55,308 nt of DNA, taken from a virus. A program made the translations under genes and the position numbers. Of this stretch, positions 30,758-55,308 are shown in pieces. A model generated the notes under the pieces. That model was given only the letters and a program-made list of their open reading frames with translations, had not been told where the DNA came from and ran no database searches. Every line of letters starts with the position of its first letter. Positions within the stretch are counted from its first letter, which is position 1. The stretch covers positions 1 through 55,308 of IMG/VR virus record IMGVR_UViG_3300045988_083838. The stretch is one strand, 5' to 3'.

Positions 30758-31671
30758 TGTCTTTTAACTTATATTTTGCAGGACAGCAAGCTAAAGAAGT
30801 TGACCAGTATATTATCAAGAAAAAATGTTGTAGATTATTTTCTCAATCTAATGAACGTAAAGGAATACTAGAGTATTGTTCTTTGTGTAGAAAGAGTAGA
30901 CCTAAACTGCTTGTAGATAGTGGAGCATTTTCAGTAGCACATTCAGGTAAATCTGTAGATATCGACCAATATATAGATTTTATAAATGAAAACGATGACG
31001 GGGTAACCGCTTGGGTTGAGTTGGATTCTATTCCGTTTCCTGTTTTAAATTCTACGACAGCGAAGAAGTGCTCTGAAGAGTCCTGGCAGTCTTATCTTTA
31101 TATGTTATCAAAAGTTAAAAGTCCGGAAAAACTTATTCCGATTTATCATTTTGGTGAACCTAAAGAAAATCTAAGAAGAATACTCAATACAGAACACGAA
31201 ATACTTGATTGGAAACCTGCTCCTTATATTGGAGTAGGTGGACGTCACGGCGTTTCTACTCAAGAACAACTACATTATTTCGACGATGTATTTAAGATTG
31301 TTAAAGCAAGTAAAAATCCAAATGTTAAGATTCATGCATTTGGAATGACTGTATTAACATTATTAGAACAGTTTCCTTTTTATAGCGCAGACTCGACAAC
31401 ATGGCTCCAACTAGGCATCAATGGAAATATAATAACAGAACATGGAATATTCGTCGTTAGTGATAGAAATAAAACATCAAATAATATTCTAAATCAACAT
31501 GATAAATGCAGAAAAATAGTTGAAAAAGATATAGGTAAATTTGGTTATACATTGGAAGAAGTAAGCACTGATTACAAGAAAAGACTTATGTGCAACATAG
31601 ATTTCTTTCAGGACTGGGCAGATAATTATAAATATAAGCCATTAAGCGTTCGTAGAAGACGCCTAATATAA
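30757..31671 (+). CDS. dpdA: DpdA-type DNA-guanine transglycosylase (TGT-like)
   Basis: LLVDSGAFS, IGVGGRHG, IHAFGMT and ADSTTW match the bacterial and phage DpdA blocks (ALDSGGF, IGVGSVC, LHGFG, ADSMAW). Confidence 0.8.
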   Translation: MSFNLYFAGQQAKEVDQYIIKKKCCRLFSQSNERKGILEYCSLCRKSRPKLLVDSGAFSVAHSGKSVDIDQYIDFINENDDGVTAWVELDSIPFPVLNSTTAKKCSEESWQSYLYMLSKVKSPEKLIPIYHFGEPKENLRRILNTEHEILDWKPAPYIGVGGRHGVSTQEQLHYFDDVFKIVKASKNPNVKIHAFGMTVLTLLEQFPFYSADSTTWLQLGINGNIITEHGIFVVSDRNKTSNNILNQHDKCRKIVEKDIGKFGYTLEEVSTDYKKRLMCNIDFFQDWADNYKYKPLSVRRRRLI

Positions 31672-31692
31672 TTAAAAGGAGGATTAAAAAAT

Positions 31693-32046
31693 ATGTATTA
31701 TGTATCAAAAAGAATGGAAATAGCAGGAGCCCATCAGTTAAAGTTACCTTATGATAGTAAGTGTGAGAAACTACATGGGCATAATTGGATAATTACTGTT
31801 TATTGTAAATCAGACAAGCTCACTGATTATGGGATGATTGTAGATTTTACAAAGATCAAGAAAGAGATACATGACAAGCTAGATCATTCTTGTATAAATG
31901 ATGTTGTGTACCCGCTCAATCCCACCGCCGAGAACATGGCAAGATGGATATGTAAAAGAGTTTCAGATATTTGTGAAGTTGGAGTGTGTTATAAGGTAGA
32001 AGTACAAGAAAGCGAAGGAAATATTGCTACCTATGTGGAGGATTAA
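31693..32046 (+). CDS. queD: 6-carboxy-5,6,7,8-tetrahydropterin synthase
   Basis: CEKLHGHNW, GMIVDF, 117 aa. Confidence 0.9.
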   Translation: MYYVSKRMEIAGAHQLKLPYDSKCEKLHGHNWIITVYCKSDKLTDYGMIVDFTKIKKEIHDKLDHSCINDVVYPLNPTAENMARWICKRVSDICEVGVCYKVEVQESEGNIATYVED

Positions 32047-32048
32047 AT

Positions 32049-32693
32049 ATGAAAGTAGTAGAAATATTTAAAAGTATTGACGGTGAGGGTAAGCGGGCAG
32101 GCTTACCTACCACATTCATAAGATTATTTGGGTGCAATTTGAATTGCTCTTATTGTGATACAAGATATGGTTGTGAAGGAGAAGGATATTCAATCATGAG
32201 TATTCTACAGATTGTCAGTGCAGTGGAAAGATGTGGTATTCATTCAGTGACAATAACTGGCGGAGAACCTCTTGTACACCCAGGCATTGATAAACTTGTT
32301 CATATATTATTAGAAAAAGGTTATTGGGTAAATATTGAGACTAATGGCTCGCAGTACATTGGAAAATTTCCATCAAGCCCTCTTTTATTCTTTACAATGG
32401 ACTATAAATGCCCGTCGAGTGGCATGGAAAATCATATGGATTGTCGTAACTTTGAATTACTATTCAAAAATGATGTGCTTAAATTTGTTGTAGGTAGTCA
32501 GGAAGATTTGAATAAAGCGTTACAGGTTATTGAGAAATATAATCCGCAGGCACAGATATATTTTAGCCCAGTATTTGGTGAAATTGAACCTTCCGAAATT
32601 GTTGATTTCATTTTAGATAAGAAATTGGATAATTGTAAGGTACAGTTGCAAATGCATAAGATAATTTGGGAACCAAATAAGAGAGGAGTATAA
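32049..32693 (+). CDS. queE: 7-carboxy-7-deazaguanine synthase (radical SAM)
   Basis: [31 protein letters not shown]. Confidence 0.9.
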
Positions 32694-32694
32694 A

Positions 32695-33267
32695 ATGATA
32701 GATAAGAAAAGAATTGAAAATGCAGTAAAAGAAATCTTAATTGCTTTAGGAGATAATCCAGATAGACCAGGACTTGTAGATACACCTCATAGAGTAGCTA
32801 AGATGTATGAAGAAGTATTTGAAGGAATGAATTACACGAACGAGGAGATTGCAGAAAAATTCTGTAAATGTTTTGATACAAATAATAATGATCTTGTTGT
32901 TGTAAAGGATATTCCAATCTTCAGTTATTGTGAACATCATTTAGCTTTGATGTATAATATGAGTGTGTCTATTGCGTATATCCCAAATGGAAAGGTATTA
33001 GGACTGAGTAAGTTCGCTCGAATTGCGGATATGGTTGGAAAGCGTTTACAGCTTCAGGAAAGAATAGGTTCCGATATAGCGGATATTATCCAGCTGGCTA
33101 CAGATTCTCAGGATGTGCTTGTTCTTGTTGAGGGGGAGCATAGTTGTATGACAGCAAGAGGTATTAAGAGTCGAGGAGCTAAAACAAGAACCGCGACAAT
33201 TCGTGGATTATTTGAGTCTAATGTAGAGCTTCGTAAAGAAGCATACTCTTTAATGAGTTTGAAATAA
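32695..33267 (+). CDS. folE: GTP cyclohydrolase I
   Basis: [50 protein letters not shown]. Confidence 0.95.
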
Positions 33268-33281: not shown

Positions 33282-34376
33282 ATGAAAGTAGTAACAAGCA
33301 GAATGAAAGAAGCAGTAAATAAGGCAATTAAGGGAGCCGGATTTAATAATCTTATTCCTATTACATCAATGATAGGTATTAAATTATCAGATGGAAAATT
33401 GAGATTGCTTACAACAGATATGACTAATACATTATGTATTATCATTGACAAAGTAGCTGGGGATGATATGGACATCACAGTAGATGCCGATAAGTTTGGA
33501 AAGCTGATTGCAAAGACAACTTCGGAAGATATTGACTTGTCTGTAAAGGATGATGTTCTTTTTGTAAAAGCAAACGGAACTTATAAGATACCATTGATTT
33601 CAGACGAGGAAGGACTTATCTCATTCCCAGATATTAAGCCAATGGACGATAAAAATGTACAGTGTTCAACCAAACTTTCAAGTGTTATGCAGGCTTATAA
33701 TATCAATAAGTCAGCTCTTGCAAAAACATTAGAAAATCCTGCATTGACCGGTTACTATTGTGGAGATACTGTTATCACAACTGATGCAAATGTAATCACA
33801 TTCAATGGCTTTAAGATGTTTGATAATGACGAACCTATTCTTATTTCTGCCCAGCAGATGCAGTTATTGACACTGAATACAAAGGAAGATATTGAAGTAT
33901 ATATCGGAAAAACAGGTATTCAGTTCGTAACAGAAGATGTGGTTATTGATGGGGCATTGATGGAAGGAATTGAAGATTTCCCTGCAAATGAAGTAAACGC
34001 ATATCTTGATGAAGCATTTACGTCTTCTTGTAAAGTACCAAAGGACTTACTTCTTTCCGTGCTTGATCGTCTTGCATTATTCATTGAACCATATGACAAG
34101 AATGGAGCATATTTCACATTTGGAAGAAAGGGAATCAATATTCACAGTAAAAAGGACGCATCTACAGAAACCATCAACTATGTGGAAAGTAAGGACTTTG
34201 CTCCGTTTGTATGTTGTGTAGATATTCCAATGTTAAAGGAGCAGTTGCAGGCTAATCCGGATGATACAGTGAAGATCTGTTACGGAAATGAAAATGCATT
34301 GAAGATTGAGAGTGGAAAAGTAACACAGGTTATAGCTCTACTTGAAGATGAAGAACTTGACAATATGACAGAATAA
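33282..34376 (+). CDS. dnaN: DNA polymerase sliding clamp (DnaN/beta-like)
   Basis: 364 aa. The N-terminus has beta-clamp-like architecture (LRLLTTDMTNTL..., three repeated domains by length). It co-occurs with clamp-loader genes. Confidence 0.7.
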   Translation: MKVVTSRMKEAVNKAIKGAGFNNLIPITSMIGIKLSDGKLRLLTTDMTNTLCIIIDKVAGDDMDITVDADKFGKLIAKTTSEDIDLSVKDDVLFVKANGTYKIPLISDEEGLISFPDIKPMDDKNVQCSTKLSSVMQAYNINKSALAKTLENPALTGYYCGDTVITTDANVITFNGFKMFDNDEPILISAQQMQLLTLNTKEDIEVYIGKTGIQFVTEDVVIDGALMEGIEDFPANEVNAYLDEAFTSSCKVPKDLLLSVLDRLALFIEPYDKNGAYFTFGRKGINIHSKKDASTETINYVESKDFAPFVCCVDIPMLKEQLQANPDDTVKICYGNENALKIESGKVTQVIALLEDEELDNMTE

Positions 34377-34428: not shown

Positions 34429-34460
34429 AGATGGTTAGTTTTTAACTAACCATCTTTTTT
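34429..34460 (+). terminator. Rho-independent terminator
   Basis: 12-bp stem (agatggttagtt / aactaaccatct), then tttttt. Confidence 0.85.
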
Positions 34461-34480
34461 AGTTTATTTTAAAAAATCAC

Positions 34481-34509
34481 TTGCATTTTATTTTTTTATG
34501 TGTTACAAT
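34481..34509 (+). promoter_or_regulatory. Sigma-A-type promoter (cassette variant)
   Basis: aaaaaatcacTTGCAT, 17 nt, TGtTACAAT. Confidence 0.8.
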
Positions 34510-34550
34510 ATATACAAGTTAAGAGATAAACAAAAAGGAGGATACATAGT

Positions 34551-38403: not shown

Positions 38404-38700
38404 ATGACAGAGCGTGAGGCTATAGAAAAGCTGAAAAATATGAGATTGTTTATGCAGATTATGGACAAGGATAGCGAACATAAATTTGTAGAAGATGATT
38501 ATAAAGCAAACGAAATGGCAATACATGCACTTGGAAAGCAGATACAATTAAAAGTGTTACATTCATACGATGATTCCATTGATGACGATTGGTGTTCTTG
38601 CCCGATTTGCTGTTCCGGATTAGGCTGGTATCATGGAAAACATTATAAATATTGTATGAATTGTGGTCAAAAGTTAGATTGGGAGGATGATTATGAGTAA
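38404..38700 (+). CDS. Zinc-ribbon protein
   Basis: CPICCSG...CMNCGQ. The ATG at 38404 follows gtgagga. Confidence 0.55.
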   Translation: MTEREAIEKLKNMRLFMQIMDKDSEHKFVEDDYKANEMAIHALGKQIQLKVLHSYDDSIDDDWCSCPICCSGLGWYHGKHYKYCMNCGQKLDWEDDYE

Positions 38701-39712
38701 TCTTGATTTAATTATAAAAGATTTGAACAAAAAAATGAAAGTAGGAAATATTCAGCTAGGTGTGGATTTCCAAGAAGTGCAGAAGATTCCTTTTTCCTCA
38801 TGTAGATTAAACTATATGACATACGGAGGTATTCCAGTTGGAAGAATAGCAGAATTTTATGGGGCAGATGGAAGTGGAAAGACCACTACTGCTATTGATG
38901 TAGCAGGAAATGCCCAAAGAATGTTTCCAGATAAGAACGTGCTATTTGTAGATATTGAGCATACCTTTGATTCATGCTGGGCAACTAAGCTGGGGTTGAA
39001 TTGTGACGATATAATCTACCTTGACCCGGATAGTATGGGGGCAGAAGGAGTATTTAATCTAATGATAGAATTGATTGATACAGGAGAAATAAGCCTTTGT
39101 ATTTTAGATTCTATAGGTGCTATGGTATCAATGCAGGCAAACGAAAAGCAGATAGGGGAAAGAACCTATGGTGGAGTAAGTATGGCACTAACTGAATTTA
39201 GCAAGAAAATAACTCCAGTTCTTGCAAGAACACAAACTGCCTTTATAGGAATAAATCAAGTCCGAGATGATATGAATAGTATGTATGGCGGAACAACAAC
39301 GACAGGGGGAAGAGCATGGCGGCATAGCTGTAGTACAAGACTTGAATTTAGAAAAGGTAACTATATTGATGAAAAAGGTAATAATCTTTCAAGAGCTTGT
39401 GAGAACCCAGCAGGAAATATAGTCAATGTAGCATTAGTGAAATCTAAAGTATGTCGACCGGATAGAAAAGTAGGTTTCTACACTTTGAAATATCTTGAAG
39501 GGATTGACTATGTATCAGATGCGGTAGACGTTGCTATCAAGATGGGATTGGTTATACAAGGCGGAGCATGGTTCTCTTTAGTTGATACAGAAACAGGTGA
39601 AATATTAAGCAAGTATCAAGGTAAATCAAAGTTAGTTGAATATCTAAAGGAAAATGATAACTATACAGATTTCTATTCAAAACTGGAGAAATTATTAAAT
39701 GAAGAATCTTAG
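38693..39712 (+). CDS. recA: RecA-family recombinase
   Basis: YGGIPVGRIAEFYGADGSGKTTTAID (Walker A), LCILDSIGAM (Walker B), INQVRD. Confidence 0.85.
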   Translation: MSNLDLIIKDLNKKMKVGNIQLGVDFQEVQKIPFSSCRLNYMTYGGIPVGRIAEFYGADGSGKTTTAIDVAGNAQRMFPDKNVLFVDIEHTFDSCWATKLGLNCDDIIYLDPDSMGAEGVFNLMIELIDTGEISLCILDSIGAMVSMQANEKQIGERTYGGVSMALTEFSKKITPVLARTQTAFIGINQVRDDMNSMYGGTTTTGGRAWRHSCSTRLEFRKGNYIDEKGNNLSRACENPAGNIVNVALVKSKVCRPDRKVGFYTLKYLEGIDYVSDAVDVAIKMGLVIQGGAWFSLVDTETGEILSKYQGKSKLVEYLKENDNYTDFYSKLEKLLNEES

Positions 39713-39754
39713 TTATCAACAAGTTATCCACATTAAATTGTGGATAACTTTTTT
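39713..39754 (+). terminator. Terminator hairpin built from DnaA boxes
   Basis: TTATCAACA (39713-39721), TTATCCACA (39724-39732) and TGTGGATAA (39739-39747). The last two form a 12-bp stem (aagttatccaca / tgtggataactt) followed by a T-run. Confidence 0.8.
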
Positions 39755-39760
39755 ATTTAT

Positions 39761-39816
39761 TTTTCAAAAATCACTTGCATTTTACCTTTTTATGTGTTAC
39801 AATATATACATAATAA
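39761..39816 (+). promoter_or_regulatory. Conserved 56-nt promoter cassette, copy B
   Basis: Identical to 24132-24187, with -35 TTGCAT at 39775-39780 and -10 TACAAT at 39798-39803. Confidence 0.85.
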
Positions 39817-39843
39817 GAAATACGTAAAAGGAGGATACATATT

Positions 39844-41532: not shown

Positions 41533-41936
41533 TGAATAATGCTGAAAAATTTTGGGATACTTTTTTGAAAAAACGATTATGTGAGGAAGGTGGATTTGGT
41601 GTATGTGAGTATAAAAATGCTCCTATGCCTTGTGATGAGTTGTACTGTAACCGTTGTATATTCGGACGTGCTACAGAGGAATGCCAGGTGGGTAGATCTA
41701 GATGGTTAGACTCAGAATTTAAGGAATATGTTAATTGGGAGACTGTATTACGAGACACAAAAGTTCTTTTTAAAGATTTGGAAAATGATACATGGGAGAA
41801 AGGATATTTTGATGAATACAATAAATATAAAGATACTATTTTTATCTTTGCAGATGGCAGAACATCCTACACAGCTAAAAATAGTATAGCTTATGATCCG
41901 AAGTATGTAAAATTATATAAAGAGGAGGATGAATAA
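41532..41936 (+). CDS. Hypothetical Cys-containing protein
   Basis: 134-aa ORF whose start overlaps the upstream stop. Confidence 0.55.
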   Translation: MNNAEKFWDTFLKKRLCEEGGFGVCEYKNAPMPCDELYCNRCIFGRATEECQVGRSRWLDSEFKEYVNWETVLRDTKVLFKDLENDTWEKGYFDEYNKYKDTIFIFADGRTSYTAKNSIAYDPKYVKLYKEEDE

Positions 41937-42991
41937 TGGCAAAGGAATCGTTGGCAGTAAAATATCGACCAAAATCATTTGATGATATGACAGAACAGAC
42001 AGCAATCAAAGAAATTTTAGAAAATCAGATTAGAACAAAGACATTTCAGCACGGATATCTTTTTACTGGACCTGCCGGAACAGGAAAGACAACATCAGCT
42101 AGAATCTTTGCAAATATGATAAATGATGGAAAAGGAAATCCTATTGAAGTAGATGCCGCAAGTAATAGCGGTGTAGATAATATCAGACAAATTATAGAAG
42201 ATGCTAAAAGAAAACCACTTGATGCAGAATACAAGATATTCATAGTGGACGAGTGTCATTCATTATCAAATGGGGCATGGCAAGCATTATTAAAGACACT
42301 TGAAGAGCCGCCAAAATTTACAATTTTTATTTTCTGTACAACGGATCCGCAGAAAATTCCGGCAACTATACTTTCTAGAGTGCAAAGATACAATTTTCAG
42401 AAAATAAGTAATGAAGGTATCGTGGAAAGATTAGAGCATATTTGCTTAACTGAAAATTCTCAAGATGTGAATGATCCAAATTTAATGGATATTGGAGATA
42501 TAATAAGATATCCGGAAGCATTAGAATATATAGCGAAAGTTTGTAATGGGGGTATGAGAGATGCTATTACCTTATTAGATAAATGCCTTTCATTATCCCA
42601 CGATTTAACATTAGAAAATGTTCTAAAAACGATTGGTACAGAAGATTACAGCACATTTATAACATTTTTATCTGCATTAGAAGAAAAGGAAAAAGAGCTT
42701 TCAATTAAAGTAGTTGAAGATGTATATAATGCTGGCAAAGATGTAAAGCAGTTTATGAAAGATTTTGCAAAGTTCATTCTTGAAGTGGAAAAGTATGCTT
42801 TATATAAGAATTTTGATTATATTAGCTTACCTAATACACTTGAGAATGAATTGGAACAGCTTATTGATGATAGTTTATTTGATGTCATGGACTTTGTAGT
42901 TTCTTTGAATAATCAGATTAAATGGGATAACGACCCAAAGACATTGATTGAATTATCTATCTTGATTTATTGTGGAAAGAATGAGGATTAA
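41936..42991 (+). CDS. dnaX: Clamp loader large subunit (DnaX gamma/tau-like AAA+)
   Basis: KYRPKSFDDMTEQ, LFTGPAGTGKTT, IFIVDECHSLS, SRVQRY. Confidence 0.85.
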   Translation: MAKESLAVKYRPKSFDDMTEQTAIKEILENQIRTKTFQHGYLFTGPAGTGKTTSARIFANMINDGKGNPIEVDAASNSGVDNIRQIIEDAKRKPLDAEYKIFIVDECHSLSNGAWQALLKTLEEPPKFTIFIFCTTDPQKIPATILSRVQRYNFQKISNEGIVERLEHICLTENSQDVNDPNLMDIGDIIRYPEALEYIAKVCNGGMRDAITLLDKCLSLSHDLTLENVLKTIGTEDYSTFITFLSALEEKEKELSIKVVEDVYNAGKDVKQFMKDFAKFILEVEKYALYKNFDYISLPNTLENELEQLIDDSLFDVMDFVVSLNNQIKWDNDPKTLIELSILIYCGKNED

Positions 42992-42995
42992 ATAT

Positions 42996-43217
42996 ATGAA
43001 TAATATAAAAGTAACACAGCTATCTATAGAAGAAGTTAAGAAAAAAATTTTTGATAAGGATATTGAGGGTGTGTATATATTGGCAGATGAAGACGATGGC
43101 TTAAATTTGCGTGTAATAAAGTATAGCAGGCTGGATAATATCATAAGACGAACATCAGATGGTTCAGCTTTTTTAAAGATTGAGGTGATTAAAAATGATG
43201 ATAGGACAGAAGAATAA
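42996..43217 (+). CDS. Hypothetical protein
   Basis: I prefer the ATG at 42996 after tgagga. Confidence 0.5.
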   Translation: MNNIKVTQLSIEEVKKKIFDKDIEGVYILADEDDGLNLRVIKYSRLDNIIRRTSDGSAFLKIEVIKNDDRTEE

Positions 43218-43986
43218 TATAAATACTATTATTAAATGGCGATGTAATAAGTCTGTTCCAAGATTTATCATTCTTTCCGGTAGTGAAGGATCTGGAAGAT
43301 TGACCTTTGCAAAGATAATTATAAAAATGATAAATGCACACGGAGTAATTATTGGGAATAGTATAGATGATGTACGAAAAACTATAGAAAATGCTTACAT
43401 GATTACTGAGCATACTTGTTATATTTTTAGAAATGCTGATGATATGTCAACAGCGGCTAAGAACGCACTTCTTAAAGTGGTAGAAGAACCTCCAAACAAC
43501 GCTTATTTTATAATGACCGTTCAAAATGTGGATAATATGCTGGGGACGATTAAGAGCAGGGGGACAGTTATTAAAATGGAACCTTATTCTAAACAGGAGT
43601 TAGAAAGTGTTTGTGAAGATGAATTTATATTGAAATTTGCAAGTACGATAGCAGAGGCACAAAGAGATAGAAAAGAATTAGAAAGAACTGAGCAATGTGC
43701 CCTTGATGTTATAGATGGAATGAAAGCTAAAAGTGGCACAAAGGTTTTAAAAGCAACAACACAGCTAAAATCAAAAGCTAATGAAACAGATAAGATCGAC
43801 TGTATATTGTTTATGCTAATGTTCAAAGCAGAGCTTTTACATCATCCAGAATTGTATACACAGAATAGCTTGAAATATTTAGTAAAATGCACACGAGAGA
43901 TACAAAGGTCAAGCCTAAATAAAAAAGCAAGTATTGAATGTATGCTGATATCATTATTAGACGAGGTGAAAAATGAAGATAATTGA
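43195..43986 (+). CDS. Clamp loader delta-prime-like subunit (candidate)
   Basis: FIILSGSEGSGRLTFA, LLKVVEEPP, IKSRG. Confidence 0.65.
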   Translation: MMIGQKNNINTIIKWRCNKSVPRFIILSGSEGSGRLTFAKIIIKMINAHGVIIGNSIDDVRKTIENAYMITEHTCYIFRNADDMSTAAKNALLKVVEEPPNNAYFIMTVQNVDNMLGTIKSRGTVIKMEPYSKQELESVCEDEFILKFASTIAEAQRDRKELERTEQCALDVIDGMKAKSGTKVLKATTQLKSKANETDKIDCILFMLMFKAELLHHPELYTQNSLKYLVKCTREIQRSSLNKKASIECMLISLLDEVKNEDN

Positions 43987-44188
43987 TGAAATCATTGGGC
44001 AATTAGAAGAAAGCATGAAAAATCCATTAAGCTGTGACAATGGAAGATTTGATAGATGTCCTTATATTGGTCAAGGCAATATGACTTGCTATATGTGTGT
44101 GATTGAATCGAACATTGATATGGTAAAAAAGATAGGTGAAAAATATGCAGATATTTCCAAGACGATGGAAGCTAAAGACAAAAATTGA
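43973..44188 (+). CDS. Small Cys-containing protein
   Basis: 71-aa ORF carrying CDNGRFDRCP...CYMC. Confidence 0.5.
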   Translation: MKIIDEIIGQLEESMKNPLSCDNGRFDRCPYIGQGNMTCYMCVIESNIDMVKKIGEKYADISKTMEAKDKN

Positions 44189-44483
44189 GTATCTACAGCG
44201 TAAAATCATACTAAATAGTATAGCTTACTATGAGTTGAATACCAATAAACTCACTGATAAGCAGTATGACGAGCTTAGTAGACAACTAGCTGCTATGCAG
44301 GTAGAATATCCGAATATAATGGATACTCAATATGGTTATGTATTTTATGATTTTGATGGGTCAACTGGGTTTGATCTATATCACAGGCTTAATGAACATG
44401 ACAAGAAGTATCTGCATAATATAGCTTGTCATGTTTGTGGAAATAAGAATATAAAAAAGAAAAAGAAAGGTGGTTTATTTTAA
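44145..44483 (+). CDS. Stand-alone NAD-dependent DNA ligase domain-Ia-like protein
   Basis: IAYYELNTNKLTDKQYDELSRQLAAMQVEYPNI matches the LigA N-terminal pattern (h..YY..d.p.isD.eYD.L...L..lE..fP). No adenylation domain follows. Confidence 0.5.
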   Translation: MQIFPRRWKLKTKIEYLQRKIILNSIAYYELNTNKLTDKQYDELSRQLAAMQVEYPNIMDTQYGYVFYDFDGSTGFDLYHRLNEHDKKYLHNIACHVCGNKNIKKKKKGGLF

Positions 44484-44662
44484 TGAGAGCTATGTCTGAC
44501 GAAGTAAAGGCACAAAAAAGATTCCGTAAAGAATGGGATGAGGTGTGTACAATGATACGACTAAACAGTACAAAAGAATGGAGAGAAAAAGTGTATCTTG
44601 TTCCAAAATCAGTTGAATACACTGGAATTGACTATGAAAAAAGATACAGTAAGAGGAGTTGA
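44483..44662 (+). CDS. Small hypothetical protein (59 aa, not in ORF track)
   Basis: The ATG overlaps the upstream stop (TAATG). It ends 4 nt before the next start and contains that gene's RBS. Confidence 0.5.
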   Translation: MRAMSDEVKAQKRFRKEWDEVCTMIRLNSTKEWREKVYLVPKSVEYTGIDYEKRYSKRS

Positions 44663-44666
44663 TTAA

Positions 44667-45641
44667 ATGACATTGCAGGAACTGATGGTGAGCATAGCAA
44701 ATAACAGAGCCCCGCATTATCTTATCTTATACGGAAAAGAACAAAAGATACTTGAATTGTATATAAATCAAATTGCAAAAAATTATAAATCTGTCATTTA
44801 TAATGATTCAGTGTCCGATGTGGTTAATCTGCACAGAAGGAAAAGTCTGGATAAATCAACAAAGCTATACATAGTAGATGAGGACGTATCTTTTTTAAAG
44901 GCAGAAAATGCATGGTCAACAATTAATTCTGAATTTGCAAAAAGTAAAGATGGATTGATAGTTAGGTATCATAAATTAGATAAAGGTAGTAAATTTTTCC
45001 ACAACAATAAGCAAAATATTGTTGAATTTCCGTATTTATCTGATGATGTACTATTACAGTACATTAACAGAGATTTGCCGAATTTAAGTGAAAAAAATGC
45101 TTTATCTTTAATAAAGTATTGTAATAACGACTATGGTAGAATTTTATTGGAAATTGATAAAATAATACAATACGATTCTCACAATATGTCTATAACAAAT
45201 ACCGGGAATGTACAATCAAAAAGCATTGACACCTGCTTTTCCGAGTTAGATAAACAAGGGTTATTCTATAAAGAAATAGGTGATATAACTTTTGAATTGA
45301 CTAATGCAGTCTTGGGTGGCTATACAGAAACAGCTATACAGAAACTCAATGAAGCAAAAAGAAAAGGTGAACCTGCAATGATGATAGCTTCTATTCTTTA
45401 TAATGGATTTAGAAATTTACTTGCATATCAAGGGCTTGGAAAGAATAAGCAAGAAGCAATGGAAAGAACAGGAATGACAAAAGGAGAGTTGTGGGGGTGT
45501 ACAAAAAATGTCGGTGGTTACAGTTTGGAGGAAGTTAGAAGGAATATGTTAGCTTGTCAAAGTGTGGAATCAGGGATAAAAATGGGAGCGATTGATGAAG
45601 ATATAGCACTTGAATATCTAGTGTTGTATTGTTTAAAATAA
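44667..45641 (+). CDS. Clamp loader delta-like subunit (HolA-like, candidate)
   Basis: The N-terminus (PHYLILYGKEQKIL) and the 324-aa size fit. It sits in context with dnaX-like and delta-prime-like genes. Confidence 0.55.
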   Translation: MTLQELMVSIANNRAPHYLILYGKEQKILELYINQIAKNYKSVIYNDSVSDVVNLHRRKSLDKSTKLYIVDEDVSFLKAENAWSTINSEFAKSKDGLIVRYHKLDKGSKFFHNNKQNIVEFPYLSDDVLLQYINRDLPNLSEKNALSLIKYCNNDYGRILLEIDKIIQYDSHNMSITNTGNVQSKSIDTCFSELDKQGLFYKEIGDITFELTNAVLGGYTETAIQKLNEAKRKGEPAMMIASILYNGFRNLLAYQGLGKNKQEAMERTGMTKGELWGCTKNVGGYSLEEVRRNMLACQSVESGIKMGAIDEDIALEYLVLYCLK

Positions 45642-45698: not shown

Positions 45699-45738
45699 CA
45701 GCCTATTCTTTTCAGATATAAGAATAGGCTGTTTTTTT
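45699..45738 (+). terminator. Rho-independent terminator
   Basis: 11-bp stem (cagcctattct / agaataggctg), then ttttttt. Confidence 0.85.
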
Positions 45739-45790
45739 CAAAAATCACTTGCATTTTACCTTTTTATGTGTTACAATATATACATAATAA
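45735..45790 (+). promoter_or_regulatory. Conserved 56-nt promoter cassette, copy C
   Basis: Identical to copies A and B, with -35 at 45749-45754 and -10 at 45772-45777. Confidence 0.85.
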
Positions 45791-45807
45791 AGAAAGGGGT
45801 TGTTTAG

Positions 45808-46320
45808 ATGATACTTACAAAAGAACAGCAAGAGCTGGTGGAAAAAAATCATAACTTGATTTATTATGCACTTAATAAATTTAGCGTGCAGGCGGAGGAG
45901 TATTATGGAATTTGTGCAATAGGGTTATGTAAGGCGGCGTGTACATATAACTCACAAGCTTCTAGATTTAGTACATATGCGTTAAGTGTAATTCTTAATG
46001 AGATAAGAATGGGTAAAAGACAGGAGCGTAAACAGGCAAAATTGAACCAGATAAGTATGGATGAAGAATGGACAAACACTAAAGAGGACAGTGTAACATT
46101 ACATGAAATATTAAGCACAAAAATGGATGTAGTGGATGAAATAATATCGTTCAAATTGCCCGATATATTAACACCTGATGAAATGAGGGTAGTAAAGTAT
46201 TTATATATGGATTATAAACAAAAAGAGATAGCGGAAATAATAGGGGTTTGTCAACCAGTTGTTTCCCGAAAAATAAAATCTATTAAAGATAAATTGAGAA
46301 AGCATGGGGTAGAAGTATGA
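45808..46320 (+). CDS. Phage sigma-70-family (ECF-like, regions 2 and 4) RNA polymerase sigma factor
   Basis: Region 2 is NHNLIYYALNKF...CAIGLCKAACTYN...FSTYALSVILNEI. Region 4 HTH is KQKEIAEIIGVCQPVVSRKIKSI. Confidence 0.8.
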   Translation: MILTKEQQELVEKNHNLIYYALNKFSVQAEEYYGICAIGLCKAACTYNSQASRFSTYALSVILNEIRMGKRQERKQAKLNQISMDEEWTNTKEDSVTLHEILSTKMDVVDEIISFKLPDILTPDEMRVVKYLYMDYKQKEIAEIIGVCQPVVSRKIKSIKDKLRKHGVEV

Positions 46321-46496
46321 ATAAGAATAAAATAAAAGATGTCGTATTACTTACAGTTTCGGTATACTTTTTTCTGTGTGCTATCGTGTGTATGTTTATA
46401 TATGCATTAACAGGGTACACAAACCATACATTAATGATAAAGATGTTCGTTAATATGTTTTTATCACTTGGCACTATATTACCAAGTGATTTTTAG
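46317..46496 (+). CDS. Small membrane protein (59 aa, not in ORF track)
   Basis: ATGA overlap with the sigma stop. Hydrophobic segments are VVLLTVSVYFFLCAIVCMFIYAL and MFVNMFLSLGTIL. Confidence 0.5.
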   Translation: MNKNKIKDVVLLTVSVYFFLCAIVCMFIYALTGYTNHTLMIKMFVNMFLSLGTILPSDF

Positions 46497-46509
46497 AAAG
46501 GAGGAAATA

Positions 46510-46893
46510 ATGATATTAAGAGGAGATGTTTATTGGGTTGATTTAGATAAAGTGTTCCCTAGATTGTACGATGGACAAAAAGATCATTATATGCGTGGAA
46601 TACGTCCTTGTGTTGTAATTTCAAATAATTTTAATAACAGACATAATTCAATAGTGAATATAATGCCTCTCACAACATCTTGTGACAATTTACCACAGCA
46701 TCGTTATTTACCAATCAATGGAATAACGAATTACACCGTACCGGAGTGCATTACATCTATAGACAAGTCTTTATTAAGTGGTAAGTATAGCGTGATAAAT
46801 GATAAATACTACAATCAAATTGAAAAGGCTATTGATATCCAGTTAGGATTATATGGAAATAGACATAACTGTAGAGGAGGTAAGATACGATGA
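46510..46893 (+). CDS. MazF/PemK-family endoribonuclease toxin homologue
   Basis: LRGDVYWVDL...GIRPCVVISNNFNNRHNSIVNIMPLTT...LPQH...SIDKSLL...IEKAIDIQLGL aligns along its full length to EndoA/MazF. The ATG follows ggagga. Confidence 0.85.
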   Translation: MILRGDVYWVDLDKVFPRLYDGQKDHYMRGIRPCVVISNNFNNRHNSIVNIMPLTTSCDNLPQHRYLPINGITNYTVPECITSIDKSLLSGKYSVINDKYYNQIEKAIDIQLGLYGNRHNCRGGKIR

Positions 46894-47519: not shown

Positions 47520-47552
47520 AAGAGCTTATCAATATAAGGTAAGCTCTTTTTT
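47520..47552 (+). terminator. Rho-independent terminator
   Basis: 9-bp stem (aagagctta / taagctctt), then a T-run. Confidence 0.8.
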
Positions 47553-47557: not shown

Positions 47558-47586
47558 TTTACAAAAATAACAAATTTATATATAAT
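47558..47586 (+). promoter_or_regulatory. Consensus-like sigma-A promoter ahead of the packaging genes
   Basis: TTTACA, 17 nt, TATAAT. Confidence 0.7.
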
Positions 47587-47670
47587 ATATTAATAGAATA
47601 CTAATATAAATATTATAGAAAAATCAAAAAATAACTAAAAATTTTCGGGAAAGGCGGGATATTGAAATAA

Positions 47671-47889
47671 TTGGATACAGGTAAATTAATATATAAATTA
47701 CAGTCAGCTTTAAAACAAAAAAAAGTATATGTAACTATAAATACATATCAATTCTACAGTGAAGAAAAAGATAGGTATATAAAGATGTATATAGCAAAAA
47801 GAGGGAAAAATAAAATAATAGAAACACCCTCTCAAATACAAGTAATTAAAGCATTAAATGACATTTGGCAGGAGGTAAAAGATGAATAA
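47671..47889 (+). CDS. Hypothetical protein
   Basis: 72-aa ORF with a TTG start. The upstream RBS is poor (gggatattgaaataa). Confidence 0.45.
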   Translation: MDTGKLIYKLQSALKQKKVYVTINTYQFYSEEKDRYIKMYIAKRGKNKIIETPSQIQVIKALNDIWQEVKDE

Positions 47890-48322
47890 AGAAACCGAAA
47901 GAGAGAAAGAAGCTAAAAAGCATTTAAACAATAGACAAATTAACTTTGCATTAGCTTATAAAGAGTCTAATAATATAACTCAATCCGCTATTAAAGCAGG
48001 TTATAGTCCAAAGACAGCTTGTGTGCAGGGCTGTAATTTGTTAAAAAACCATAGAGTAGCTGAGTATATAGAAGCTATTAATGAACGGTTAGAATCTGAG
48101 AAGATAGCAGACATTCAAGAGGTTATGGAATATCTTACCTCAGTAATGCGAGGTGAAGCAAAGGATCAATTTGATATGGATGTATCCATACAGGATAGAA
48201 CAAGAGCCGCAGGTGAATTAGCAAGAAGACTAGATGTTAAGTCTAGAAATCTTAATGTGGAATGTGCGGTGAATATCATTGATAACATCCCAAATGAGGT
48301 AGATGAGAATGAAGAAAGTTAA
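47882..48322 (+). CDS. Terminase small subunit (Terminase_2-like)
   Basis: RQINFALAYKESNNITQSAIKAGYSPKTACVQGCNLLKNHRVAEYI is the classic TerS HTH pattern. Confidence 0.85.
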   Translation: MNKETEREKEAKKHLNNRQINFALAYKESNNITQSAIKAGYSPKTACVQGCNLLKNHRVAEYIEAINERLESEKIADIQEVMEYLTSVMRGEAKDQFDMDVSIQDRTRAAGELARRLDVKSRNLNVECAVNIIDNIPNEVDENEES

Positions 48323-49571
48323 AGGTACTGTATTAACTGACTGCATAGGACCAGCCTTTTATACTGTTCATAACGATATAAAGAATCATAGGCACACCTA
48401 TTATGATTTAACTGGTGGTAGAGGTTCTCTCAAGTCATCTTTTATATCTATTGAGATTGTGCAAGGGCTTATGAAAAAAGAAAATGCGAATAAACACGCT
48501 GTAGTCTATAGGAGAGTTGGAGATACCTTGGAAACATCTGTATTCTCACAGATTGAATGGGCTATTGATAAACTAGGAGTAAGTCACTTATGGAAGTTGA
48601 CTAAATCACCAATGAGAGCTATATATCTACCCACTGACCAACGTATCATATTTAAAGGGTTAGATCATGCTAAAAAGTCAAAATCTATAAAAGTGCCTTT
48701 TGGATATATCGGGTATTTGTGGTTTGAGGAGTTTGATGAATTTGCTGGTGAAGAAGAAATAAGAAAAGTTCAGCAGTCCGTTATAAGAGGTGGAGATGAA
48801 TTTATAGTATTCAAATCCATGAATCCACCTAAGTCAAGACAGAACTGGGCGAATGATTATATAGAAAAAGAAAAGATAAGAAGTGATACATTAGTATCCC
48901 AGACGACTTATCTAACATCACCTAAAGCATGGTTGGGGCAACAGTTTATAGATGATGCTGAATGGTTGAAAGAAGTAAATCCAAAAGCATATGAACATGA
49001 ATATATGGGTATCCCGGTTGGCACAGGTACAGAAGTATTTGACAATCTGGAAATTAGAGAAATAACAGATGAAGAAATAGCTAGATGGGATAACCTATAT
49101 AGGGGAGTTGACTGGGGCTGGTATCCGGATCCTTTCCATTATGGGTGTATGTACTATGATAGTAGAAGATTGATACTATATATATTTGAGGAGTTCCGCA
49201 CAAATAAAATGAAAAATGCAGATACTGCACAGGTATTGAAAGATGAATTTAATCTAGGTAGATACGATATAGTAACGTGTGATAGAGCGGAAGAGAAATC
49301 CATAGCTGACTATAGATCATATGGAATTAATGCAAGACCAGCAGAAAAAGGACCGGGGTCTATCCGATATGGAATGAAATGGTTGCAATCACTTGTAAAG
49401 ATAGTGATAGATCCTAAGAGGTGCCCAGAAACGGCAGAAGAATTTAAAAAGTATGAATATGAATTAGACAAAGAAGGAAATCCTACATCTAATTATCCAG
49501 ACAAAAAGAATCATAGTATAGATATGACAAGATATGCTATGGAAACAGTATGGAAGAGAAAAGGAAAGTAA
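48303..49571 (+). CDS. Terminase large subunit (PBSX/Terminase_3-like)
   Basis: Walker A-like LTGGRGSLKSS. A nuclease half with GVDWGW...D. 422 aa. Confidence 0.85.
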   Translation: MRMKKVKGTVLTDCIGPAFYTVHNDIKNHRHTYYDLTGGRGSLKSSFISIEIVQGLMKKENANKHAVVYRRVGDTLETSVFSQIEWAIDKLGVSHLWKLTKSPMRAIYLPTDQRIIFKGLDHAKKSKSIKVPFGYIGYLWFEEFDEFAGEEEIRKVQQSVIRGGDEFIVFKSMNPPKSRQNWANDYIEKEKIRSDTLVSQTTYLTSPKAWLGQQFIDDAEWLKEVNPKAYEHEYMGIPVGTGTEVFDNLEIREITDEEIARWDNLYRGVDWGWYPDPFHYGCMYYDSRRLILYIFEEFRTNKMKNADTAQVLKDEFNLGRYDIVTCDRAEEKSIADYRSYGINARPAEKGPGSIRYGMKWLQSLVKIVIDPKRCPETAEEFKKYEYELDKEGNPTSNYPDKKNHSIDMTRYAMETVWKRKGK

Positions 49572-52134: not shown

Positions 52135-53724
52135 ATGATGATAAAGAAATTATTGAATTTATTATATGAAGCACTTGAAAAGATGCTTGGATACAAAGAA
52201 TCATCAGATATAACAGAATGTGCTATATCTGATGAAATGTCCGATGCAATGGATCTTTGGAAAAAGGTGTATAAAGACGAGAGTCCTTGGTTAGATGATG
52301 TAGATGGCATTTATTCTTTAGGTCTTGGAAAAATGATTTGCCAATCTGTTCAGCAACAGGTGCTTTCGGAAATGGAAACAAGCATAACCGAACCCGGAAA
52401 AGAGGATGAGGTGGACAATGACAAGATAGAGGAAGAAGATACAACTAGAGCCACATACCTCAATAACATTTATAAGAAAAGGCTTATTAAAAAGCTTCCA
52501 CAAGCATTAGAAAAAGCCCTCGCAATGGGTGGTATGCTTATAAAGCCATATGTGAATAATGATAGTGTTTATCTTGATTTCAACTATCAGGGTGACTTCT
52601 ATCCAATCACGTTTGATGATGATGGAAACATCACTGATATAGCTTTTTATGATTCTTTTGTATCTGGAGATTTTATTTATACAAAAATAGAAAGGCAGAC
52701 ATTTAATCAGTTAAAGAAAGAAATCACTGTGCAGAACAAAGCATTTAAAGCAAGGTATATTAACTCAAATGATGATACAGAACAAGAGCTTGGAACAGAA
52801 GTACCATTATCAAGCATTGAAAAATGGGCTAATATATCACAAGAACCTGTTGTGCTGAAAAATATGGAAAAGCCATTATTCGGTTGCTTTAAGGTTCCGT
52901 TCGCAAATAATGTTGATATGAGTAGCCCTTTAGGTATATCCATTTTTAGCCCTGCAATCAAAATGATAGAATTAGCAGATAAACAGTTTAGTCGACTTGA
53001 CTGGGAATATAATGGAGGACAGCTTGCCATTGATGTAGATCCAACTGCCGTAACATACAGTGATGGGTATTTTGGTAAGGTTACAAATTTGGATGCTTGT
53101 CAGAATCGTCTATACAGAAACATTGATTTAGGTACGGATGAGACATATAAAGAATGGGCTCCAGCTTTAAGAGATACTAACTATATGAATGGATTGAACG
53201 TGTATCTTAATAAGATAGAAGATTTAATTGGACTTGCAAGGGGTACGCTAGCTCAAGTTGAGAGTGAAGCAAGAACTGCTACTGAGATTAAGCTATTAAA
53301 ACAAAGAACATACATCACTATATCTGCTATACAAGATGAGCTTGAAAAATGCTTGATGGACACAGTGTATGCTATATCTGTATACTGTGATTTATACAAT
53401 CTTATACCATCAGGCGACTATAACACGAATATAGAATGGAAAGATAGCATATTAACGGACACAGATACTGAACTGGAACAGAAGCTAAACCTCCAAAATG
53501 CCGGAATTTTAAGCAAAGCAGAAGTAAGAGCTTGGTATACTGGTGAATCTGTAGAATCCGCACAGCTTGAAATTGATAAGATAGATGAAGCTAAACAAAG
53601 TAGTATGCTTAACGATTTATTTTCCACAAACCCAGAACCTACATTAGATTCTGAAGAGGAACCTAGAAAGGCAGAAGGAACTATTGACAAAGGAACACAG
53701 AATAAAGGGGCTGAAAATGAGTGA
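52135..53724 (+). CDS. Portal protein (SPP1 gp6-like)
   Basis: 529 aa with an acidic C-terminal tail, lying upstream of the gp7-like gene. Confidence 0.8.
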   Translation: MMIKKLLNLLYEALEKMLGYKESSDITECAISDEMSDAMDLWKKVYKDESPWLDDVDGIYSLGLGKMICQSVQQQVLSEMETSITEPGKEDEVDNDKIEEEDTTRATYLNNIYKKRLIKKLPQALEKALAMGGMLIKPYVNNDSVYLDFNYQGDFYPITFDDDGNITDIAFYDSFVSGDFIYTKIERQTFNQLKKEITVQNKAFKARYINSNDDTEQELGTEVPLSSIEKWANISQEPVVLKNMEKPLFGCFKVPFANNVDMSSPLGISIFSPAIKMIELADKQFSRLDWEYNGGQLAIDVDPTAVTYSDGYFGKVTNLDACQNRLYRNIDLGTDETYKEWAPALRDTNYMNGLNVYLNKIEDLIGLARGTLAQVESEARTATEIKLLKQRTYITISAIQDELEKCLMDTVYAISVYCDLYNLIPSGDYNTNIEWKDSILTDTDTELEQKLNLQNAGILSKAEVRAWYTGESVESAQLEIDKIDEAKQSSMLNDLFSTNPEPTLDSEEEPRKAEGTIDKGTQNKGAENE

Positions 53725-54833
53725 TAACACTAGATGAAATTACCTCTATCTCATATGTGATAGCACAAAGATTTGAAAAAGTGAATACTTATTATCTCGA
53801 TTTATTAGCCAAGCAGTTAAAGGAGATAGGAACACTATCTCCTGAAGACTTGAATATGATAGAACAAATGACAAAGACTGGCGGAAATATAGATGAAATA
53901 AATAAATATCTTATGATGCAGACAGGTTTAGCCTTAAACGATATAAATGCTTTATACTTGAAAGTAGCTAAAGATATCTATAAGGATGTATCTTATCTAT
54001 ATAAAGCCGGAAATGTTGAACAACCAAAATTTAAAGATAATAACAGGTTACAAACATATATAGCTAGTGTTCAAAAGCTCACTCAAAATACATTTATAAA
54101 CATGGCAAATACAACAGTTATAAGCAAGACCTACAGAGATACAATAGATTTTGCAGTTGATGCAGTATCAAGAGGAGTTGGGGATTATGACAAAGCTATA
54201 AAAAGGTATGTGCTTGATAAATCTGTAAATGGTGCAAGAGTACAGTATTCAAGTGGTCTTACAAGAAGATTAGATAGTGCCGCAAGAATGAATATAATGG
54301 ATGGTGTCCGTCAAATATCTAATGGTGTTAGAAAAGAATGTGGAGACCAATACGGAGCTGACGGAGTAGAGATTGATGCACATGGACTTTGTGCAGAAGA
54401 TCATATAAAAGTACAGGGTAAACAGTACACTTTGAAAGAATTCGAAAAAGTAAATGAAAACCTAAAAAGAAAGATTGGCACTTGCAACTGTAGACACCAG
54501 ATAAGTTATATCATATTAGGTGTGTCCAAACCTGCATATAGCCCAGAAGAATTACAAGAATTAAAAGAATATTCCACAGAGAAGATACAAATAAAAGATA
54601 AAGAAATTACAAGGTATCAAGCTAGTCAGCTTATGCGAAAGACAGAAACAAGTATGCGGTATAAGCAAGATGAAATTGTTACACTGAAAAAAACTGGAGT
54701 TGATATAAGTAAACAAGAAGAATCTTTGCGAAATCTAAAAAAGACTTACTACTATATAAGCAAAAGAGCTGGTTTAAGGACAAGATACGATAGAGCGTAT
54801 GTACCGGGGTTTGATATTAAAAAGTTCAGATAA
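53721..54833 (+). CDS. Head morphogenesis / minor capsid protein (SPP1 gp7 / Mu F-like)
   Basis: 370 aa immediately after the portal, with the GADGVEIDAHGLCAEDH...GTCNCRH motif region. Confidence 0.75.
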   Translation: MITLDEITSISYVIAQRFEKVNTYYLDLLAKQLKEIGTLSPEDLNMIEQMTKTGGNIDEINKYLMMQTGLALNDINALYLKVAKDIYKDVSYLYKAGNVEQPKFKDNNRLQTYIASVQKLTQNTFINMANTTVISKTYRDTIDFAVDAVSRGVGDYDKAIKRYVLDKSVNGARVQYSSGLTRRLDSAARMNIMDGVRQISNGVRKECGDQYGADGVEIDAHGLCAEDHIKVQGKQYTLKEFEKVNENLKRKIGTCNCRHQISYIILGVSKPAYSPEELQELKEYSTEKIQIKDKEITRYQASQLMRKTETSMRYKQDEIVTLKKTGVDISKQEESLRNLKKTYYYISKRAGLRTRYDRAYVPGFDIKKFR

Positions 54834-54836: not shown

Positions 54837-54932
54837 TTATCAACAAGTTATCCACAGCTTAATGTGGATAACTTTTTTACTGTTTATAACCTGTTGATAA
54901 CTTGTTAATTCATACTTTACAAATGTGGATAA
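54837..54932. promoter_or_regulatory. Cluster of five DnaA-box 9-mers
   Basis: TTATCAACA (54837), TTATCCACA (54848), TGTGGATAA (54863), TGTTGATAA (54892), TGTGGATAA (54924). Confidence 0.8.
54845..54878 (+). terminator. Rho-independent terminator (same DnaA-box hairpin as at 39721)
   Basis: 12-bp stem (aagttatccaca / tgtggataactt), then tttttt. Confidence 0.8.
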
Positions 54933-54944
54933 CTTTTGTATAAT
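54916..54944 (+). promoter_or_regulatory. Consensus-like sigma-A promoter ahead of the scaffold and capsid genes, with a DnaA box in the spacer
   Basis: TTTACA, 17 nt, TATAAT. The spacer contains TGTGGATAA (54924-54932). Confidence 0.7.
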
Positions 54945-55017
54945 ACAAAATGTAAATATTCCATATCCCGGAAAGCGGGATTTATAAATCATTTTAGAAT
55001 GTAGGAGGAAAAATGAA

Positions 55018-55308
55018 GTGAAAAATATCTATGATATTTTAAAAGGTATCGGAATCGAAGTTCCGGAAGACAAAAAAGGTGATTTTGACAAGGCACTAAA
55101 CGAAAATTATAAGACGGTGAGCGAAGTCAATAATATTCAGAGCAAGCTGGAAAAGGCAGAGGGTGAACGTGATACTTATAAGACAAAGTATGACGAAGAT
55201 ATTAAGCAAAGGGATACAGATATCAAAGACCTTCAAAAGAAGCTCAAAGATGCTGGAACAGACACAGAAAAGTTATCCAAGCTTGAAACAGAACTTGGCA
55301 CACTTCAA
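55018..55308 (+). CDS. Scaffolding protein (GP20-like), N-terminal part; continues at window position 2
   Basis: GTG start 10 nt after AGGAGG. The adjacent ATG at 55013 gives only M-K-stop. Carries ILKGIGIEVPEDKKGDFDKALNENYK. Confidence 0.75.
   Translation, partial: MKNIYDILKGIGIEVPEDKKGDFDKALNENYKTVSEVNNIQSKLEKAEGERDTYKTKYDEDIKQRDTDIKDLQKKLKDAGTDTEKLSKLETELGTLQ
55254..55308. repeat. Second copy of the 55-bp terminal overlap
   Basis: Identical to 1-55. Confidence 0.95.

Follow-up and report, generated by a model that had tools for sequence, protein, structure and literature searches.

What do binding sites for the bacterial initiator DnaA do between two late genes of a gut phage genome? This question is raised by the intergenic region at 54837-54944 of the IMG/VR virus record IMGVR_UViG_3300045988_083838, which we analysed over its full 55,308 nucleotides (hereafter the window). 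The region separates a minor capsid protein gene from the scaffold gene. A preliminary description had reported five DnaA boxes in it and had left three readings side by side, namely a replication origin or co-origin, gating of structural-gene transcription by DnaA, and titration of DnaA by the phage. The reading that we favour, at a rough probability of 0.45, is that the region could be a DnaA-operated operon boundary that gates transcription of the scaffold and capsid genes and that is possibly released as replicating genomes titrate DnaA.

DnaA-box clusters at two operon boundaries

By scanning the window, we recovered the five boxes of 54837-54932 (three exact, two with one mismatch) exactly where they had been placed. 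As had also been described, two of the exact boxes are the arms of a terminator hairpin, and a third sits within the 17-nt spacer of a TTTACA/TATAAT promoter at 54916-54944. The hairpin has a 12-bp stem followed by T6 (Table 1). To evaluate this density, we compared it with randomized sequences. First, the window contains seven perfect 9-mers against 0.80 ± 0.88 expected, and none of 100 shuffles reached seven. Second, five boxes with at most one mismatch fall inside 110 bp, whereas the maximum in 300 first-order Markov simulations was three. The claim that the boxes exceed chance was therefore sound, although the accompanying statement that a perfect 9-mer is expected "well under once" was slightly too strong, the expectation being about 0.8-1 per genome.

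The preliminary description did not contain a second cluster that we found directly behind recA, at 39713-39747, with two exact boxes and one with a single mismatch, which brings both clusters together to eight boxes per genome. It is built as the same module as the first, that is TTATCAACA, a 2-bp gap, TTATCCACA, a 6-nt loop, TGTGGATAA and a T-run, and over 45 nt the two share 89% identity, with most differences in the loop. The longer motif AAGTTATCMACA is confined in the window to these two intergenic clusters, and all perfect boxes carrying the AAG flank lie within them. The remaining perfect 9-mers, at 2578 and 43527, are intragenic, have no AAG-type flank and are as many as chance predicts. 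Both in the window and in its relatives (see below), the clustered sites keep short fixed gaps, with tandem pairs 2-3 bp apart.

Both box hairpins stand directly after stop codons, those of recA and of the minor capsid gene, and each is then followed by T6. Both have 12-bp stems. Folded as RNA, the hairpin at 54845 reached -17.6 kcal/mol (z = -5.5) and the recA-side hairpin -16.5 kcal/mol. The former is predicted to be the intrinsic terminator that closes the terminase/portal/minor-capsid operon. Among the approximately nine strong intrinsic terminators of the genome, only two have box arms, and the stems of the others are mutually unrelated. Since about seven other strong terminators thus have unrelated stems, the box is, judged by sequence, not required for termination. 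In two relatives (L002 and L003), both arms were altered jointly (C to A, G to T) to TTATCAACA/TGTTGATAA, by which pairing and box likeness were both kept; this co-change counts as one independent event only.

Downstream of the terminator, the spacer box at 54924-54932 begins 2 nt past the -35 hexamer and stops 6 nt short of the -10 hexamer. The interval between -35 and -10 is the classical position for a repressor. A sister promoter at 47558, which precedes the terminase-to-minor-capsid genes, has identical hexamers and spacer length, and only the promoter at 54916 carries a box. Because the sister promoter does without it, the box appears, as far as these sequences tell, dispensable for promoter function as such. 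The terminase-to-minor-capsid unit ends at the box hairpin, and the box promoter and the scaffold gene follow; we therefore take 54837-54944 as the boundary of two late units.

Also, a hairpin just downstream of the predicted transcription start (54965-54981) belongs to the scaffold leader. It pairs in all eight distinct sequences available, with compensatory changes at 5 of its 6 pairs. As it covaries, this hairpin acts as RNA, which is consistent with transcription from the promoter at 54916. Stabilisation of the mRNA or control of translation as an operator are possible roles. Invariant TCCA and ATTTTAG (54993-54999) motifs flank it. A leader at 47646-47662 (tcgggaaaggcggga), on the side of the sister promoter, loosely resembles the scaffold leader.

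Conservation of the box arrangement in related and unrelated contigs

We then examined 18 related IMG/VR contigs that span the same intergenic region and whose upstream protein is about 45% to 96% identical to that of the window. Although the DNA cannot be aligned between groups, all 18 have 4-11 boxes (at most one mismatch) in this region, and all 18 show an inverted-box hairpin followed by a T-run as well as tandem boxes 2-3 bp apart. Moreover, the spacer register is the same in every one of them, the box lying 2 nt past the -35 and 6 nt before TATAAT. In L020 the spacer box departs from TGTGGATAA at two positions, and in the other 17 relatives at one position at most. The -35 hexamer varies among these relatives (TTTACA, TTGTAA, TTGTAT) while the register of the box is unchanged. 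Within three groups of close relatives, 12% of box columns were variable compared to 20% of the other columns (Fisher p = 0.008), a conservative test since the other columns include promoter and leader.

Box number has expanded in some lineages. In L258 (around 1020-1190) and L261 (reverse strand, upstream of 6966), we counted 8-10 TGTTGATAACT repeats, partly with a 20-bp tandem period. These arrays, which resemble iterons, precede the same box-bearing promoter in relatives with about 46-49% identity. Expansion to as many as 11 boxes, together with such arrays, is easier to reconcile with cooperative occupancy or a sink for DnaA than with a single operator.

At least eight relatives retain the recA-side hairpin together with the abutment of TAG and TTATCAACA, and in L040 and L066 an extra box hairpin precedes another copy of the early promoter. 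In some relatives the hairpin on the minor-capsid side has the loop of the recA side (ttaaat), which suggests exchange between the two hairpin sites.

Finally, a consensus box in the same promoter-spacer register, with more boxes or a box hairpin adjoining, was found in contigs unrelated to the window, namely L263 and L276 (about 124 kb each) and L267 (28 kb). The occurrence of this layout in two unrelated lineages looks like convergence. No cultured phage was matched by megablast, either with the region or with two unrelated contigs that carry boxes.

Candidate binder, proposed regulation and competing explanations

Host DnaA is probably the protein that binds these boxes. We favour it because the same box hairpin is found in bacteria of many phyla and the doublet of a weak and a strong box in T5-like phages. 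The flanked palindrome AGTTATCCACA-N2-8-TGTGGATAACT occurred in 112 viral-contig stretches; these amount to 94 distinct contexts, of which 73 lie beyond this phage family, with a G+C content spanning about 25% to more than 65%. Among the matches listed, AAGTTATCCACA-N2-8-TGTGGATAACTT was present in at least 120 bacterial genomes from many phyla (L119-L238); by our own arithmetic, chance would yield far below one match for 24 specified bases. The bacterial palindrome often lies in dense box clusters, probably oriC for some, and many copies stand alone. These bacterial genomes have no relation to the phage and were rejected as a pointer to its host. The identical 22-mer AGTTATCAACAAGTTATCCACA was found in Proteus phage PM135. 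Of sequence-specific proteins, DnaA is the obvious one that all these hosts share.

The companion boxes point the same way. In low-GC bacterial loci, TTATCAACA was a top one-mismatch variant beside these palindromes (15 cases, 9.5-fold enriched over the rest of these loci), and this enrichment suggests that it is a normal companion of consensus boxes in low-GC chromosomes. At oriC, weak sites are filled from a strong neighbour at tandem spacing (PMC6727663), and the tandem strong and weak boxes 2-3 bp apart described here match that arrangement (PMC6727663). Thus, the statistics, the 18 relatives and the same elements in bacteria and T5-like phages bear out the earlier view that these are non-random DnaA boxes; its suggestion of an origin has the least support (see below). 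We also considered a DnaA-like binder encoded by the phage itself and rejected it, as Pfam scans of the replication, recombination, small non-structural and a few structural phage open reading frames (ORFs) found no DnaA domain IV. In these scans, small ORFs were run as GS-linker concatenates, and spurious Serglycin matches derived from the linker were disregarded; weak helix-turn-helix (HTH) matches came from two small proteins only, at 17776-18099 and 20368-20715.

Among the three readings offered at first, gating is best supported because the register of the box is fixed in the spacer while the -35 drifts. The following sequence of events can be proposed. First, host DnaA would occupy the boxes, with strong sites as anchors and neighbours 2-3 bp away filling cooperatively. 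Second, DnaA sitting between -35 and -10 would block RNA polymerase and keep the scaffold/capsid promoter low early in infection, and DnaA bound to the hairpin might form a roadblock that strengthens termination of the upstream operon. Third, every replicated genome would bring eight further boxes, by which free DnaA would be titrated and the promoter opened. Structural-protein output would then track genome copy number, and DnaA drawn away from the host origin would be a side effect. In E. coli, dnaA autoregulation and datA are precedents for a DnaA-repressed promoter and for a cluster outside oriC. Non-oriC clusters of DnaA boxes in B. subtilis both control the genes next to them and titrate DnaA (PMC3245932).

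Several points weigh against this gating scheme. First, TTATCAACA is the commonest variant in some relatives and does not conform to TTWTNCACA, the E. coli consensus; how strongly DnaA binds it is stated as not known (10.1101/866236). Mainly since TTATCAACA dominates in some relatives, another protein that prefers AGTTATCAACA is a possible binder. Second, the phage may replace guanines with 7-deazaguanines, and this could change recognition of TGTGGATAA in the major groove: this box has three G residues, and 7-deazaguanine alters the major groove at G. The genes at 30757-33267, coding for a DpdA-like transglycosylase together with the preQ0-pathway proteins QueD, QueE and GTP cyclohydrolase I (FolE), form a 7-deazaguanine DNA-modification set as in Streptococcus phage Dp-1; QueC was not recognised in this set. 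An effect of the modification on the boxes could also be part of the mechanism. Third, the direction of regulation, repression or activation, is read only from the position of the box, and the phage sigma factor instead of sigma A might read the TTTACA/TATAAT promoters. Fourth, a low-GC Gram-positive host, probably one of the Clostridia, is proposed only from the closest cultured phages, Clostridium phage phiCTP1 and Dp-1. Neither phiCTP1 (whole genome) nor Dp-1 (first 50 kb of 56.5 kb) contains a perfect box or a cluster, and the feature therefore belongs to a subclade. This rules out box clusters as a trait of the whole phage family.

The closest competitor keeps the same logic and changes the protein: the sites would be operators whose AGTTATCMACA motif is read by a regulator other than host DnaA, of phage or host origin, and the likeness to DnaA boxes would be partial mimicry or coincidence. 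We regard this as unlikely. In its favour, AGTTATCMACA is common to all eight sites of the window, TTATCAACA is as frequent as the consensus or more so in several relatives, including the 20-bp arrays of L258 and L261, and the two small HTH proteins and many ORFs without annotation offer candidates. However, the strongest and best-kept sites are exact consensus DnaA boxes, and no single phage-specific regulator would be common to the many bacterial phyla and the enterobacterial T5-like phages that share the palindrome and the doublet. Also, TTATCAACA stands beside consensus boxes in low-GC chromosomes, and the gene downstream of the recA cluster is not co-conserved with that cluster.

A second possibility, which we judge distinctly unlikely as the whole explanation, is that the multicopy phage boxes drain DnaA from the host origin and regulon, which would halt host replication rounds and free resources, their placement in a terminator and a promoter being secondary. 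In B. subtilis, titration of DnaA by clusters away from oriC does delay initiation (PMC3245932). The phage brings replication machinery of its own and so does not need DnaA for itself, and there are eight boxes per genome here, with up to 11 in a single intergenic region of relatives. Nevertheless, boxes are few here compared with dedicated sinks, and a sink leaves unexplained both the invariant register of the spacer box and the placement always at the same two operon boundaries. Such a drain is plausible alongside gating, with which it is compatible and not mutually exclusive, and in this form the titration reading of the preliminary description stands.

A function in replication is improbable and is the least supported of the three readings first offered. 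The boxes would then mark a DnaA-dependent origin or co-origin, or a single-stranded DNA site of the ABC-primosome type, where a hairpin forms on the displaced or lagging strand, DnaA binds the stem box, and helicase and primase are loaded. Part of the phage initiator is DnaD-like (phrog_186), and cellular DnaD is recruited by DnaA in Firmicutes. Both hairpins also fold as DNA on either strand (-10.2 to -10.5 kcal/mol, around -10.4; z about -5), and the E. coli A-site, at which DnaB-DnaC is recruited, is just such a stem-loop with a DnaA box in its duplex part (PMC6127211, citing Masai 1990). Against this, the phage encodes its own initiator, loader and helicase, and at none of the 19 loci that encode a relative of this initiator does its gene have a box cluster within 10 kb. 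The clusters stand instead at operon ends in the structural and recombination modules, and the box-less phiCTP1 and Dp-1 (first 50 kb) have homologous replication genes. Single boxes outside hairpins, including the spacer box, would be left unexplained, and to our knowledge ABC priming is documented only for E. coli proteins. On reading the sequence, with no formal scan, we saw no AT-rich unwinding element or DnaA-trio run beside the boxes, the whole intergenic region being AT-rich. GC skew is positive throughout and monotonic, and it is uninformative on the origin.

Upstream of the initiator gene, we considered the inverted repeat AAGTTATACA...TGTATAACTT (19487-19530) as a candidate pair of boxes and rejected it: it has no CACA half, is part of a two-hairpin leader and is replaced in one close relative. 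This leader (19431-19533) has two hairpins with complementary GGCGG/CCGCC in loops or flanks; it is kept in L239, L240 and L242, and an unrelated sequence stands in its place in L241. Possible roles are attenuation, autoregulation or service as the phage origin.

Hardly credible is a duplicated terminator cassette with an accidental DnaA-box-like stem and no protein reader at all: the 89% identity of the two modules and the ttaaat loop shared in some relatives, which suggests exchange between sites, speak for it, but single boxes outside hairpins, including the spacer box, are conserved in both orientations, the motif persists while box number and arrangement change between lineages, each of the other seven or so terminators has a unique stem, and box hairpins recur in unrelated phages and bacteria.

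Comparison with known systems and genomic context

DnaA boxes on phage DNA are already known. Phage lambda, where DnaA stimulates pR, and the P1 plasmid origin are examples of phage DNA that uses host DnaA for transcription or replication. Unlike the present phage, both are temperate and infect enterobacteria; their sites adjoin replication genes or origins, and none is known at a structural promoter or in a terminator stem. T5-like phages, for their part, carry TTATCCACA/TTATCAACA pairs 3 bp apart, with inverted repeats, in the injection-stop region, as first noted in 1987 (bioRxiv 10.1101/866236). These T5 boxes lie in the long terminal repeat and were proposed to arrest DNA injection, DnaA binding being only hypothesised (10.1101/866236). 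The likeness to our case is close, as both are virulent phages (here probably) with non-coding pairs of a consensus box and TTATCAACA 2-3 bp apart and with inverted repeats. In contrast to T5, the window assembly shows no long terminal repeat, its 55-nt overlap closing the circle, the boxes are intergenic in the late region, where they form part of a terminator and a promoter, and the phage most likely infects a Gram-positive host.

Like the clusters of B. subtilis (PMC3245932), those described here are intergenic groups of consensus or near-consensus 9-mers that overlap or flank promoters; they differ in belonging to a probably virulent phage genome, in abutting the scaffold/capsid operon, and in that two boxes are a terminator stem. 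The ABC-primosome A-site (PMC6127211, citing Masai 1990) similarly has a complete DnaA box in a duplex stem that can fold on single-stranded DNA. However, it is a single-stranded DNA priming signal, whereas here a T-run follows, the hairpin is at the 3' end of an operon, and boxes occur outside hairpins too. The bacterial loci offer no model for the promoter: the layout of -35, 2 nt, box, 6 nt and -10 was seen in 0 of the 120 bacterial loci, and we therefore rejected mimicry of a host promoter. Likewise, full-text literature searches returned no description of DnaA boxes as a phage terminator stem or in a phage structural-gene promoter.

The outcome proposed under gating, late expression tied to replication through a replication protein, has parallels. 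In T4, late transcription is coupled to replication via the sliding clamp. Replication-coupled late transcription through the sliding clamp is also described for Mu (PMC12867686). Genes for a clamp, for its loader and for a small sigma factor are present in this phage too. Unlike in T4 and Mu, the proposed sensor would be the host initiator titrated on boxes in cis, and not a DNA-loaded clamp that activates RNA polymerase.

Late-gene timing in phages of Gram-positive hosts without a known late activator is poorly understood. If gating is true, a DnaA-operated promoter would tie late expression to replication by simple titration, and DnaA would join the short list of host proteins that serve phages as sensors. 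A wider version of this proposal, which we consider doubtful, is that the gut-siphophage clade and at least two convergent lineages use DnaA as a genome-copy counter, that is a titration timer for late genes that operates without a phage regulator and shuts down host initiation too. The finding is directly testable, since the promoters at 54916 (box) and 47558 (no box), with the same hexamers and spacer length, are a natural internal control and a clean experimental handle. Moreover, box hairpins are frequent in viral contigs and bacteria and can be misread as origins; predictors that count boxes would call this site an origin.

The first 55 nt of the window are identical to the last 55 (1-55 and 55254-55308), and because of this exact terminal overlap we take it as a circular assembly of 55,253 bp. 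Its genes all share the same strand, and the G+C content is 33.5%. At the protein level the closest cultured relatives are phiCTP1/FA88 and Dp-1, with polymerase identities of 46% (phiCTP1) and 41% (Dp-1). Gene content and order are as in phiCTP1 and Dp-1, and the phage is probably a virulent siphophage of that type. Concerning the genes around the cluster, the upstream gene, first called gp7-like, is indeed a functional analogue of SPP1 gp7, but its family is Phage_min_cap2 (PF06152). The downstream gene matched phrog_194, in agreement with its earlier assignment as scaffold. The capsid assignment stood in terms of position only: the ORF in the major-capsid position (427-1296, 289 aa) had no match in Pfam, in PHROGs or by tblastn to cultured phages, and we keep the label as an unconfirmed one based on position.

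Table 1. Features of the window, beginning with the box clusters and their surroundings; the last three rows refer to other contigs.
Feature	Position	Strand	Remarks
Weak DnaA box TTATCAACA	54837-54845	+	One mismatch; tandem with next box, 2-bp gap
Consensus DnaA box TTATCCACA	54848-54856	+	Left arm of terminator stem
Consensus DnaA box	54863-54871	-	TGTGGATAA on + strand; right arm of terminator stem
Intrinsic terminator (predicted)	54845-54880	+	Stem AAGTTATCCACA/TGTGGATAACTT, 12 bp; loop 6 nt; T6; hairpin 54845-54874
Weak DnaA box	54892-54900	-	TGTTGATAA on + strand; upstream of -35
Decayed partner TGTTAATTC	54903-54911		Adjoins 54892 box; intact TGTTGATAA in L002/L003
Sigma-A-type promoter TTTACA-17-TATAAT	54916-54944	+	11/12 consensus positions; predicted to drive scaffold/putative capsid/tail operon
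Consensus DnaA box	54924-54932	-	TGTGGATAA on + strand; promoter spacer; putative operator
5' leader hairpin of scaffold mRNA	54965-54981	+	6-bp stem, GAAAG loop (GAAAA also among relatives)
Scaffold gene	55018-55308, across circular junction to 409	+	GTG start 55018; phrog_194 head scaffolding protein
Minor capsid protein 2 gene	53721-54833	+	PF06152, E = 3.6e-42; last gene of upstream operon
Weak DnaA box TTATCAACA	39713-39721	+	Directly after recA stop TAG (39710-39712)
Intrinsic terminator (predicted)	39721-39756	+	Consensus-box arms 39724-39732 (+) and 39739-39747 (-), then T6
Early-type promoter copy TTGCAT-17-TACAAT	39775-39803	+	TGTG upstream; 27 nt past last box
Strong terminator	47520-47548		Precedes sister promoter
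Sister promoter TTTACA-17-TATAAT	47558-47586		No box; precedes terminase-to-minor-capsid genes
Early promoter family copies	15188-15269, 17353-17434, 24119-24200, 28723-28779, 34454-34535, 39748-39829, 45722-45803		
Replication initiator	19550-20353		HTH_36 and DnaD-like part (phrog_186)
DnaC-like loader	20702-21364		
DnaB-type helicase	21492-22778		
Primase	23073-24128		
tRNA genes	24872-25327		Gln-TTG, Met-CAT, Ile-AAT
SSB	25480-26235		
Family A polymerase	26369-28726		
Sliding clamp	33282-34376		Weak match, E = 1e-4, below Pfam cut-off; position as Dp-1 DnaN
RecA	38687-39712		
Three clamp-loader subunits	41936-45641		
Small sigma factor	45808-46320		
Terminase small subunit	47882-48322		
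Terminase large subunit	48303-49571		
Portal	52135-53724		
Box-in-spacer site, unrelated lineage	L263 2100-2300		
Box-in-spacer site, unrelated lineage	L276	reverse	
Box-in-spacer site, unrelated lineage	L267 2100-2300		

The early promoter copies of Table 1 belong to a set of 7-8 near-identical promoters (AAAAATCACTTGCAT...TATGTGTTACAAT), each just past the T-run of a terminator and heading an early or replication operon. They form a class apart from the two late TTTACA-17-TATAAT promoters. At Rfam gathering scores, the window contained the three tRNAs and no other RNA family. Where the late region starts, directly behind the gene for the sigma factor, lies one for a MazF/PemK-like toxin (46468-46893), for which no antitoxin was recognised, and the ORF at 29576-30757 (393 aa), which adjoins the 7-deazaguanine set, had no family match. 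Finally, eight GC-richer viral contigs (L004, L011, L024, L026, L036, L071, L074 and L108) share the element TTGTCCACAGG...TTTGTCCACAGTTATCCACA-loop-TGTGGATAACT with a further box about 40 nt downstream, which may be a phage-plasmid origin or flanking host sequence.

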